Shown here piece after piece: positions 60,501 to 63,277 of a DNA stretch of 64,000 nucleotides. The DNA is taken from positions 30,681,436 to 30,745,435 of the forward strand of contig JARFYF010000012.1 of assembly GCA_030265395.1 (NCBI GenBank), written 5' to 3'. The DNA comes from Rhina ancylostomus. Its lineage: Eukaryota. The translations under genes were made by a program, and so were the position numbers. The notes under the pieces are model-generated. The model saw nothing but the letters and a program-made list of their open reading frames with translations, made no database searches and was not told where the DNA came from. Numbering within the stretch: the first letter of the stretch is position 1; each line of letters begins with the position of its first letter.

Positions 60501-63277
60501 TAATACTTCTTCTAAATTTTCACCCATTTAGTTTGCTTATGTCCTTCAGGGAAGGAAATCTACATCCTCTACTTGGTCTGCGTCCAGACCTACACTAATT
60601 AACTACCTTCTGAAAAGGCTTAGCAAGCCATTCGGTTCAGCGATAAATTGAGTGGGGCAACAAATATTGGCCCAGTCAACAAGCCCCAAATCCTGTGAAT
60701 AAATAAATTAAATTAGATTTTATTTACAGCATGGTAACAGGCCCTTCCGGCCCAACAAGTCTGCGCCACCCATTTTTAAACCCATATTAACCTACCCCGT
60801 ATGTCTTTGGAATGTGGGAGGAAACCCACGCAGACACGGGAGAACATACNNNNNNNNNNNNNNNNNNNNNNNNNNNNNNNNNNNNNNNNNNNNNNNNNNN
60901 NNNNNNNNNNNNNNNNNNNNNNNNNNNNNNNNNNNNNNNNNNNNNNNNNGACCCGCCCCCGTATGTCTTGGGAATGTGGGAGGAACCCCCCGCCGCCACG
61001 GGAGAACAGACCACCTCCTACAGACAGCGATGGGAATCGACCACCGATCACTGGCACTGTAATAGCATCGTGCGAATGCTATGCTATCGTGCTGCCCCTA
61101 ATTCAAAGATTAAAAACTTTGAAAAAATACCTTTTCCTGAAATTACTTCTTTATCTACTCGCCACCGAAATCCAATCTGTCAGATAAGAAGGTAAGACTA
61201 GTCATATAGTAGAAACTATAGTCAAGGTTATCAAAATAAAATTAATATAGGGAACATCCATTAAAGCAAGTTCCCTCAGAAACACTTGATGACATATATA
61301 CATTCAATCAGCATACCTTATTGTGTTTATATTGGCTCAAATCAGCAATACAATATTCTTTGAATAATTTATCATAGTATTTCTTTGCCAATGCTTTCTC
61401 CCTAAAAGATGAAGAAATCTTGTTTAGATATTCTGAAGGGAAGGTCACCATCTACATTGACATACTTCAATGAAAATTAAAATTTCCTTCAAATCAACAT
61501 CCTTTCTCAAGGTTCCCGATCCAGAACAAGCTAATATCCACCTAGCTACATACTAAGTATTTTCTTCAGGGTGTCAAATCAAGTTCTACCACATCTCTGA
61601 GCTTCTCTTCCTAACTGCTCAAATTATAAATGCAGATCCATATTTCTAGAACTTCCATTATTTGCCAGTCACTGAGGTGAGACACTCAAAGCATACTTAA
61701 CAAATCTTCAAATAAAAGCTGTTTAGAGATTGAGAATCTCAAAATAATGGGTTGGATTGTGTGGATATTTGCTAGCAATTGTGGTTAAAGCTACTGGCAT
61801 TCAGCAGTTTAAACCGAATTCCTAGTAAATTCCAAGAATACTCTGCAAGATCTAAGTATCTGGAACTTACAGGTGAATGCAGGAGGTTGAGTCTGGGAGT
61901 CTGCTTCATTGCTGGATATCCCATAGACTCCAGTGCCCCCAGCATTACTCTGGGAAAATGACCACTCAGGTTGGATGTCAGGTCAAACCTAATTCACTAC
62001 CCAAGACACCAGCAGCTCAGTGGAGAATGCTAATAAAGGGGAAGTTAAGCTAGGTTTTAAAATTATTTTGCTATAGTTTAATGTTTTAAATTATTTTTTA
62101 AATAAATATAACTCACTTTTATAAATCTTTTTACATATTTTTAATAATTAAAAAATTGTTCACTTCAATTATCGTGGATTTTTAATGTCTCTGAATGTCA
62201 GAAACATTTAAAACTATTAAAATTAATAATGATGTTCACAGCTGGCAATACTCCAAACTCAGCTTTGTCATCCATCAGGGATGTTTTAGGATCAGGGCTT
62301 TCACACTACCTAAGGTAATTGACTCTGATGTAGAATACTAGAAAGATATACCCTTTGCATCCACCTAAAGGAAGAGGCATAAACAAGCTATGATTGAACA
62401 ACATGGGTGGGTGGGGGAAGTGGAGGTTATAGCTGAGCTAACATGATCTCTTGGGTCGGTCTTAGATAACAATTTAATGTACCAATGAGGGAAACTCAAT
62501 GCTTTTCAAAGAACAGTTTACAAATCGTGGTTATCAATGTACAGTTTTGCTAGGACCCTTTCACCTGTCAGAGTTGGCATTTGTGCCTTAGGAGCTCGTT
62601 GAACAGTTCCAATGATGGCCAGCAGATTTATGCAACTACCCAAGTGGAAATAGCTTAACCTACAGAACAATATATCAAATCTTACTAAATGATTAAAAAT
62701 TCCAATTTTCCAATTTATATCCCTGGATGCTTTCAAAGTAAACACTTTAATATAATAGTTATTAAATCCATTGCAGCAGTTAACAAAAATCTAAAGACAT
62801 GTAAATAATTATACAAGTTATAATAAATTATAAAAAGATCACTTCAAAGGCTCCAAGAAAATATTGTAACAGAATGAGCTGATATACAATTCAAGAAGAT
62901 AAAATTGTTTCCCCTTGGTACTTCATTCACAAGTTCTGAAGAAGCTTTAGCTAGTAGAAGCAATAAGAATAGCTGTAAATGCTAAAGATTAACACCTAAG
63001 AATTCATTTGTCAGTAGTGCTGAATTCATTATTTAGTGCATTGTACTTTGTCTCTGAAATTTAGTTCCATTTACTTCAATGGAACTGAAATTTGGAGGTA
63101 GAATCATTGTGCAATTGCCATAGACTGTAGATAAGTTTTTAAAAGTCAGAAACTGCCTGTAATTACCAGTTCAAAGAAACTGCCTGTAATTACCAGTTCA
63201 TATCAGCTTCATCATCATCTGTCCATAAGAATCTATGGTTCTCTCTTATCACATCCAGGTCCGTTTTATCATTGACC
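39529..63277 (-). CDS. FRA10AC1: FRA10AC1, spliceosome-associated protein: last 9 coding exons (5' exons outside the window)
   Basis: Nine GT-AG exons splice in frame: NDKTDLDVIRENHRFLW / EKALAKKYYDKLFKEYCIADLS / GFRWRVDKEVISGKGQFCCGNKHC / KSWEVNFGYIEHGEKRNALVKLRVCSECSYKLNYHHR / ... / EDEFDEYFEDMFL-stop. Tail to tail with PDE6C, as in human. Confidence 0.95.
40440..41900 (-). mobile_element. Decayed CR1-like LINE fragments
   Basis: Reverse-oriented CR1 3' tail and RT remnants; spans a 100-N gap. Confidence 0.5.
42526..42604 (-). CDS. FRA10AC1: FRA10AC1 penultimate coding exon (79 nt; 85 nt if the upstream AG is used and the exon starts at 42610)
   Basis: tcag|AA...AG|gtatgc; ENTPNTEDPSEAEYWKGPSQDAEDKTR (conserved WKGP). 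Confidence 0.85.
43288..43320 (+). promoter_or_regulatory. CTCF-like site (upstream module plus core)
   Basis: CTGCACTTTC-N6-TTGCCACCTGGTGG; the minus strand reads CCACCAGGTGGCAA. Confidence 0.55.
43990..44580 (+). repeat. GA-rich low-complexity (polypurine) tract
   Basis: About 600 nt almost entirely A/G on +, in a FRA10AC1 intron. Confidence 0.85.
45402..45452 (-). CDS. FRA10AC1: FRA10AC1 internal exon (51 nt, Ser-rich)
   Basis: gcag|GC...AAA G|gtagct; GKSSTSRTESDGHDSDK; symmetric phase 1-1; poorly conserved region. Confidence 0.7.
46020..48830 (-). mobile_element. Decayed CR1-group LINE fragments on both sides of the FRA10AC1 exon at 48012-48118
   Basis: Minus-strand RT remnant NPVLSSLIFCFINDLPSIIKLEVVMFINNYT at 46307-46651; a second overlapping RT remnant at 48200-48830. 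Confidence 0.55.
48012..48118 (-). CDS. FRA10AC1: FRA10AC1 internal exon (107 nt, Lys/Glu-rich)
   Basis: aaag|G AGG...ACG G|gtaagt; RKEVKAAKRKCKEEHHDAPTEKITKTREKQCSKST; phase-compatible with both neighbours. Confidence 0.85.
48840..49320 (-). mobile_element. Penelope-like element 3' fragment
   Basis: Terminal motif (gaaaatgctggaaacactcagtaggacaggcagcatctgtgga) plus minus-strand IICLGTLQTCKLNIKLCN, resembling the Penelope ORF end. Confidence 0.55.
52230..52390. mobile_element. Penelope-derived palindromic repeat (internally deleted)
   Basis: aaaaataggaaatgctagaaaca ... tgtttctagcatttcctattttt, 23-bp perfect inverted arms. Confidence 0.6.
53330..53660 (+). mobile_element. CR1-like LINE 3' end
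   Basis: gagaagaaatgtcttcactcaaatggtggaaagtctttggaattctctatcccag ... gagggctgaatggtctgttcctgcttcc. Confidence 0.65.
53746..53788 (-). CDS. FRA10AC1: FRA10AC1 internal exon (43 nt)
   Basis: atag|GA...AG|gtaagt; RVCSECSYKLNYHHR. Confidence 0.94.
54091..54852 (-). mobile_element. Rex1/Babar-like LINE, 5'-truncated (same family as 6374-7125)
   Basis: ALYGKCSAHDCKKLWRVVDIAQHITETSSPSMESVCTSCCLSKAANIVKGPTHP; 3' UTR homologous to 6900-7125. Confidence 0.85.
56773..56886 (-). CDS. FRA10AC1: FRA10AC1 internal exon (114 nt)
   Basis: ttag|GT...TTG A|gtgagt; GQFCCGNKHCDEKEGLKSWEVNFGYIEHGEKRNALVKL. Confidence 0.96.
57340..57560 (-). mobile_element. CR1-like LINE 3' end running into a gap
   Basis: [27 protein letters not shown] and a CR1 tail. 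Confidence 0.8.
58450..58815 (-). mobile_element. RTE-clade LINE fragment (decayed)
   Basis: Minus strand CLCKIFQINWKDN*TN..., GHVVH*PNTRLPN and GRQRKRYKD, typical of the RTE RT C-terminus. Confidence 0.6.
60715..61098 (-). mobile_element. V-SINE-like element spanning a 100-N gap
   Basis: Minus strand starts GGGGCAGCACGATAGCATAGC, has a B-box-like GGTCGATTCCC, the V-domain and a CR1-like tail. Confidence 0.75.
61131..61176 (-). CDS. FRA10AC1: FRA10AC1 internal exon (46 nt)
   Basis: acag|ATT...AAA G|gtattt; IGFRWRVDKEVISGK. Confidence 0.95.
61317..61401 (-). CDS. FRA10AC1: FRA10AC1 internal exon (85 nt)
   Basis: ttag|G GAG...AAG|gtatgc; EKALAKKYYDKLFKEYCIADLSQYKHNK. Confidence 0.95.
63194..63277 (-). 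CDS. FRA10AC1: FRA10AC1 internal exon (84 nt)
   Basis: gcag|G GTC...AAC TG|gtaatt on -; VNDKTDLDVIRENHRFLWTDDDEADMNW. Confidence 0.93.

Follow-up and report, generated by a model that had tools for sequence, protein, structure and literature searches.

The FRA10AC1 locus

The stretch of DNA analysed here, called the window, comprises 64,000 nucleotides from Rhina ancylostomus (assembly GCA_030265395.1, contig JARFYF010000012.1, positions 30,681,436 to 30,745,435 of the forward strand). Its minus strand carries coding exons 6 to 14 of the gene FRA10AC1, and at the boundary between exon 6 and intron 6 the splice donor occurs twice, owing to a short tandem duplication. In our analysis this duplication is most likely a real, derived and near-silent mutation of a known kind. 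All coordinates refer to the window unless another locus is named.

The exon model was obtained by tblastn with shark proteins as probes, over the window and the adjacent loci L011 and L012. It has 14 coding exons, 13 introns that are all of GT-AG type, and a product of 330 amino acids without internal stop. The product is identical to FRA10AC1 of Pristis pectinata (P0014) at 319 of 330 positions (96.7%) and to that of Hemitrygon akajei at 298 of 334. Both matches to Pfam PF09725 in the 2.2-Gb assembly lie in this locus, and on these alignments the locus is a single-copy, intact, 14-exon orthologue of FRA10AC1, the gene that the initial annotation had named from the letters of the window. The exons are distributed as follows.

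63194..63277, minus strand: coding exon 6 of 14, 84 nt, phase 2-2, encoding VNDKTDL...ADMNW (tblastn and exon model)
61317..61401, minus strand: coding exon 7, 85 nt, acceptor partner for either donor
39529..61176, minus strand: coding exons 8-14 (61176-61131, 56886-56773, 53788-53746, 48118-48012, 45452-45402, 42610-42526, 39571-39529), intact
beyond the window end (L011, L012), minus strand: coding exons 1-5

Sixteen of the 28 residues encoded by exon 6 are invariant in 12 aligned sequences. The junction between exons 6 and 7 splits a Trp codon, which is equivalent to human Trp127 ahead of an 85-nt exon 7; the human exon 7 is reported to have the same length, and its skipping to shift the frame at Trp127 (PMC13199054). 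None of 11 aligned proteins of relatives has a nine-residue insertion at this junction.

Two other states of the gene were considered and rejected. No second copy or pseudogene of FRA10AC1 was found, since of the 29 genome DNA matches the other 28 belong to a short repeat around 63035-63105. Relaxed selection is rejected at the present resolution, in that the ray protein keeps all 125 positions that do not vary among 13 other vertebrates. The short repeat itself (63035-63105) is an interspersed one in intron 6, with 28 further genome matches and with many partial contigs in all four sequencing runs compared below.

A splice donor in two identical copies

An exact 26-mer occupies 63148-63173 and recurs at 63175-63200; a single extra A at 63174 lies between, so that the period is 27. 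Tandem Repeats Finder (TRF) reports 27 bp in 2.0 copies with 100% match, the top score among its 18 rows, and the pair is the sole exact tandem pair of at least 20 bp within the window. Read on the minus strand, the unit spans from position -7 of the exon to position +19 of the intron, and the donor CTG/GTAATTAC (the slash marks the exon-intron boundary) is therefore found twice, 27 nt apart, with the two donors identical from -7 to +19. The repeat coordinates and the identity of the donors are thus as first annotated. The description as a perfect 27-bp duplication holds for the period and for the number of copies, while strictly the exact copy is 26 bp long and is followed by one further nucleotide. 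The junction can equally well be parsed in two ways. In one, an exact copy of 26 bp is joined by 1 nt; in the other, TCA...TCA microhomologies flank a copy of 25 bp and AA is added.

63175..63200, minus strand: exon-side 26-nt copy (exon -7 to intron +19), with the original donor (donor 1), GT at 63193-63192
63174..63174, minus strand: extra base between the copies (2 nt under the 25-bp/TCA parsing)
63148..63173, minus strand: intron-side copy, with the second donor (donor 2), GT at 63166-63165; the exon end would be 63167
63957..63966, no strand: 10 N, the gap in the assembly closest to the duplication (757 bp away); the window has 12 N runs in all

A chance origin of the duplicated letters is ruled out, since 200 kb of block-shuffled DNA contained no comparable tandem pair. 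The duplication is built like the donor-reiterating repeats of F7 and CBS, with the first unit lying across the exon-intron boundary and the donor repeated identically downstream. A multi-unit minisatellite was looked for and not found, there being only two copies both in the window and in read set X1 (below), and the feature is accordingly a two-copy duplication and not a variable number tandem repeat (VNTR).

Presence in reads, absence from relatives, and age

Twelve public runs were found, none of them listed as an RNA run, which has no bearing on expression; four of the twelve (X1-X4) were compared with the window over 62800-63600 in the form of Logan contigs, which are reported to be built by Minia3 from 31-mers seen at least twice (PMC12424806). 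In X1, which may be the assembly's own read set and hence not an independent animal, a single contig of 1,995 bp with a depth of 8.9 matches all 801 bases of the interval with no differences and no gaps. There are 31 31-mers specific to the duplicated form, and, with a repeat that falls short of 31 nt, none of the 31-mers occurs twice. Because the X1 contig comes from a different assembler and runs unbroken through the site with these 31-mers, an error of assembly or gap filling, which had been among the explanations offered at the outset, is unlikely; an artefact of a shared library remains conceivable.

The comparison with related species, which had been proposed as a check, was carried out with X2, X3 and X4, which diverge from the window by about 3.1%, 2.5% and 6.8%. 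In all three of these other organisms exactly the 27 nt are missing at 63148. Since three related species are without them, the alignments indicate that one copy is ancestral and that the duplication is derived. The insert copies the sequence adjacent to it and the outgroups are single-copy, which is the pattern of a small tandem duplication. No single-copy contig was found in X1, where contigs show presence only and a single-copy allele would have just four 31-mers of its own. Under the rules by which Minia treats bubbles, homozygosity would be the likelier state where the longer allele stands in one unbroken contig.

At least seven substitutions distinguish the window from X2 and X4 jointly (40 of 67 rows), which corresponds to about 0.9% change on the ray lineage. 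If the lineage has changed by 0.9-1.6%, a pair of 26-nt copies dating back to the start of the branch would remain identical 44-63% of the time. The earlier argument that zero divergence between the copies means a recent event is consequently not proof of youth, and was rejected as such. By comparison of these sequences, the duplication postdates the split from X2-X4, and the identity of the copies adds little more on its age.

Two other differences were seen in the same interval. Exon 6 has a lineage-specific change, E132D at 63217, with the other base found in X2, X3 and X4 and with D present in Xenopus as well; and within the interspersed repeat 63035-63105 a stretch of 10 nt at 63059 is deleted in X2.

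Expected frequency of donor duplications

The rate at which such duplications occur was estimated from 120 loci of 10 kb, with 1.045 Mb free of N, in which perfect two-copy duplications that are not of low complexity were counted. Low-complexity and array rows (135 of 149) were dropped before the count; the 14 that were kept include three from one array and two from one locus, and none of these repeated rows has a period of at least 20. A first, smaller sample of 343 kb had given no duplication of period at least 20, and the sample was then widened. The full sample contained two duplications of period at least 20 (1.9 per Mb, confidence interval (CI) 0.2-6.9), located at L124:6916-7023 (53 bp) and L082:741-784 (22 bp), and nine of period at least 15.

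When 200,000 donors per genome and no selection are assumed, the expected number of duplications that cover a whole 9-nt donor is about 11 per genome (95% CI 1.4-41) from the class of period at least 20, and about 23 (CI 10-44) from that of period at least 15. A genome scan should therefore meet a few donor-covering duplications by chance. Small tandem duplications are reported to be the commonest short insertions, with break repair as one known route (PMC8355091).

The stop codon met on use of the second donor

63190..63192, minus strand: TAA in frame after TG/G, becoming codon 141 only with the second donor; present in the single-copy form too

When the exon ends at 63167, the message gains 27 nt, stays in frame and reads TGG TAA, with the stop at codon 141 of 330 and eight junctions downstream. 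The stop lies 554 nt ahead of the last coding junction, a position of the type that leads to nonsense-mediated decay (NMD), and the initial annotation was right that the intron-side donor keeps the frame and meets a stop far from the last junction. The stop that comes with use of the second donor is nevertheless to be expected of phase-2 GTAA donors in general, because five of the six phase-2 donors of FRA10AC1 read G/TAA and at eight of its 13 donors an in-frame stop follows within 27 nt.

Predicted pairing between the two donors

A property that the initial annotation had missed is that the donor core GTAATTAC is self-complementary and that the ends of the unit are complementary as well. The two donors may therefore pair with each other in the transcript.

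63159..63193, minus strand: predicted RNA hairpin, +1..+8 of donor 1 paired with +1..+8 of donor 2 (prediction only)

In the predicted minimum free energy (MFE) structure the two cores are paired, with a mean pairing probability of 0.97. The predicted cost of opening donor 1 goes from 2.3 to 6.3 kcal/mol (+3.9) and that of donor 2 is 7.6 kcal/mol, while donor 1 is predicted to be no less open than in the single-copy form as long as transcription has not passed about position +27. When the duplication was simulated at the gene's 12 remaining donors, the cost shifted by between -3.4 and +5.6 kcal/mol, with three of the 12 at 3.8 or above, and the native donors of FRA10AC1 have opening costs of 1.8-8.8 kcal/mol, a range within which 6.3 falls. 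The hairpin has a z-score of -2.15 (6 of 200 shuffles), which comes from an unfair control in that the shuffles destroy the repeat. The 12 simulated control duplications give no support to the idea that the hairpin is exceptional.

Known donor-reiterating repeats

The nearest known counterpart is the 37-bp minisatellite in intron 7 of human F7 (IVS7), where, as at the ray site, the unit spans the boundary, identical donors lie less than 40 nt apart and the donor is of moderate strength (PMC1557585). It differs in that donor use was measured there, while the ray site, with two copies, a period of 27 and no variation in copy number known, is described from DNA alone. For F7 it is reported that only the upstream-most of the identical donors, which are 37 nt apart, is used, in three cell lines and with one to twelve units, and that this holds both in constructs cut down to between one and six monomers and in those whose downstream sites were strengthened to a consensus value (CV) of up to 91 (PMC1557585). 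The same source describes repeats with other outcomes. The 31-bp VNTR in intron 13 of CBS has the period closest to that of the ray site, and there two downstream copies are used besides the authentic donor, as they are in the donor-reiterating minisatellite of 6-16 intron 2; such use of downstream copies is the model for a leaky duplication. In the donor-reiterating intronic repeats of LMNB2 and PDGF the authentic donor alone is used. The human minisatellites CBS, 6-16, LMNB2 and PDGF are arrays of 10-25 units, as against two at the ray site (PMC1557585).

Latent 5' splice sites share with the second donor the in-frame stop that follows upon their use, while the ray second donor is an exact copy of the authentic one, 27 nt away (PMC3510495). 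Small tandem duplications formed by break repair are reported to have, like the ray site, an adjacent copy of less than 100 bp and a slightly altered junction (PMC8355091); for the ray site break repair is suggested by the junction alone, and slippage at TCA is conceivable too. Poison exons of splicing factors are described as likewise giving an NMD-type isoform in a spliceosome-associated gene, but the ray site is without their conservation and without a cassette exon. No report of a donor duplication in FRA10AC1 or of such events in rays was found, in a search mostly outside subscription journals.

Choice between the two donors

The analysis suggests that the allele is probably near-silent or mildly leaky, with the exon-side original donor still mainly used, which would make it an ordinary mutation and not a poison switch. 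The duplication would have come about when a staggered DNA break was repaired, or else through slippage at the TCA microhomologies, one or two junction bases being added. The upstream donor would then be favoured by being transcribed first, by the purine-rich exon end beside it, by a spacing of 27 nt, which is under the approximately 30 nt where preference for the intron side starts, and by a predicted burial that is shallower than for the second donor. Should the second donor be used to a minor extent, the resulting mRNA would contain the stop codon and be removed by NMD, as noise and not as regulation.

As to the sequence context, purines make up 67% of the 27 nt upstream of donor 1, a stretch that contains six GAD words, while the corresponding values for donor 2 are 48% and one. 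The predicted U1 duplex is the same for both donors, at -5.1 kcal/mol, and is the weakest of the eight donors computed. As to the spacing, it has been reported for two globin donors that the use made of the intron-proximal one climbs fast beyond about 30 nt and is close to 100% at 45 nt or more (PMC3413131). Intronic donors that lie behind an in-frame stop are reported to be mostly unused in unstressed normal cells (PMC3510495).

Several points weigh against a near-silent allele. Both CBS, with its 31-bp repeat, and 6-16 splice at two downstream copies in addition to the authentic donor, and the early globin duplication experiments are reported to have contradicted one another (PMC1557585). 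The spacing of 27 nt is close to the threshold of about 30 nt, and every precedent comes from mammals. For the original donor, opening is predicted to cost about 4 kcal/mol more than before, which could lower its use. If the duplication is heterozygous as well as recent, it has not been screened by selection, and the intact protein then says nothing about its effect; and X1 may consist of the assembly's own reads instead of those of an independent animal.

Alternative explanations

If the second donor were used by more than about 20% of the transcripts, the allele would be a leaky hypomorph, in which the TAA at codon 141 and NMD reduce the dose of FRA10AC1 and the reduction is tolerated because it is heterozygous or partial. 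The identity of the donors from -7 to +19, with their equal predicted U1 duplex, is what would be expected in this case, as are the downstream splicing at CBS and 6-16 (PMC1557585), the reported preference for the intron-proximal site when both are occupied by U1 (PMC3413131) and the stop 554 nt before the last coding junction. Tolerance would be in line with human FRA10AC1 disease, which is reported to be biallelic and neurodevelopmental, with heterozygous carriers unaffected (PMC13199054). The F7 precedent, with its upstream donor only (PMC1557585), speaks against it, as do a spacing below 30 nt, a donor that is moderate and not strong, the deeper predicted burial of the second donor and the general disuse of stop-preceded intronic donors in normal cells (PMC3510495); a leak of this size is therefore judged unlikely. 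The predicted hairpin could act differently, in that the paired cores hide both donors from U1 and exon 6 is partially skipped. The skip would be in frame, exon 6 being of phase 2-2, so that loss of its 84 nt removes 28 residues, 16 of them invariant, and the product escapes NMD. Such occlusion would follow from the pairing of the cores and the dearer opening of donor 1, but three of the 12 simulated duplications have shifts of comparable size, the new cost is within the native range, donor 1 is predicted to stay accessible during transcription of the second copy and the z-score comes from shuffles that lack the repeat. The occlusion is distinctly doubtful. A further extension, that the paired identical donors form a structure- or temperature-sensitive three-way choice between the normal message, the NMD isoform and the skip of exon 6, fixed in one ray lineage of a cold-blooded animal and marking the birth of a regulatory splicing element, is very improbable.

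The two remaining explanations were both raised by the initial annotation. That the animal is in fact single-copy and that the repeat was made in the library or in the assembly would fit a gappy assembly of short-read type with 65,984 contigs and with 12 runs of N across the window, of which the closest is 757 bp off, and X1 is possibly the same read set. Yet the second assembler, with its 31-mers seen at least twice, gives an unbroken contig of depth 8.9, the repeat is too short for any 31-mer to be repeated, the junction has extra bases, the site lies away from the gap and three relatives are single-copy, all of which makes an artefact highly improbable. As for a nascent poison switch, where the level of FRA10AC1 would feed back on the choice of donor, it would suit a peripheral protein of the spliceosomal C complex (PMC13199054), the reported frequency of unproductive isoforms in splicing-factor genes and the location of the second-donor stop well upstream of the last junction. 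Its conservation was looked for and the feature is absent from all three relatives at about 2.5-6.8% divergence, the stop is one that phase-2 GTAA donors bring generally, and FRA10AC1 acts at complex C, after the donor has been chosen, with few splicing events reported to change upon its loss (PMC13199054). Neither autoregulation nor NMD is mentioned in the searched passages of the FRA10AC1 interactome paper (PMC10048706). With upstream-only use at F7 IVS7 in addition, nothing supports such a switch, and it is scarcely credible.

Whichever donor is used, the site is a clean natural test of donor competition, with identical donors 27 nt apart, just under about 30 nt, and with single-copy relatives as controls. 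If the allele is silent, it is one more natural case, this time outside mammals, of a close donor copy that is ignored, and matters little. A large fraction of NMD isoform or of exon skipping in homozygotes would, if true, give the site more weight and point to tolerance of reduced FRA10AC1 or to donor-donor pairing as a route to new regulation.

Other features of the locus

The last coding intron of FRA10AC1 contains another two-copy tandem repeat, at 40409-40457, with a period of 24 and 96% identity. An exact 37-bp match links 7076-7112 with 54136-54172, 47 kb apart, and probably represents two copies of an interspersed repeat. Past the window end, intron 4 of FRA10AC1 (L011:917-3000, minus strand) has the donor GCT/GTATCCTTG and, near its AG, the branch-point-like motif TTCTTAAC; by consensus it resembles a GT-AG intron of U12 type, that is, one of the minor spliceosome.

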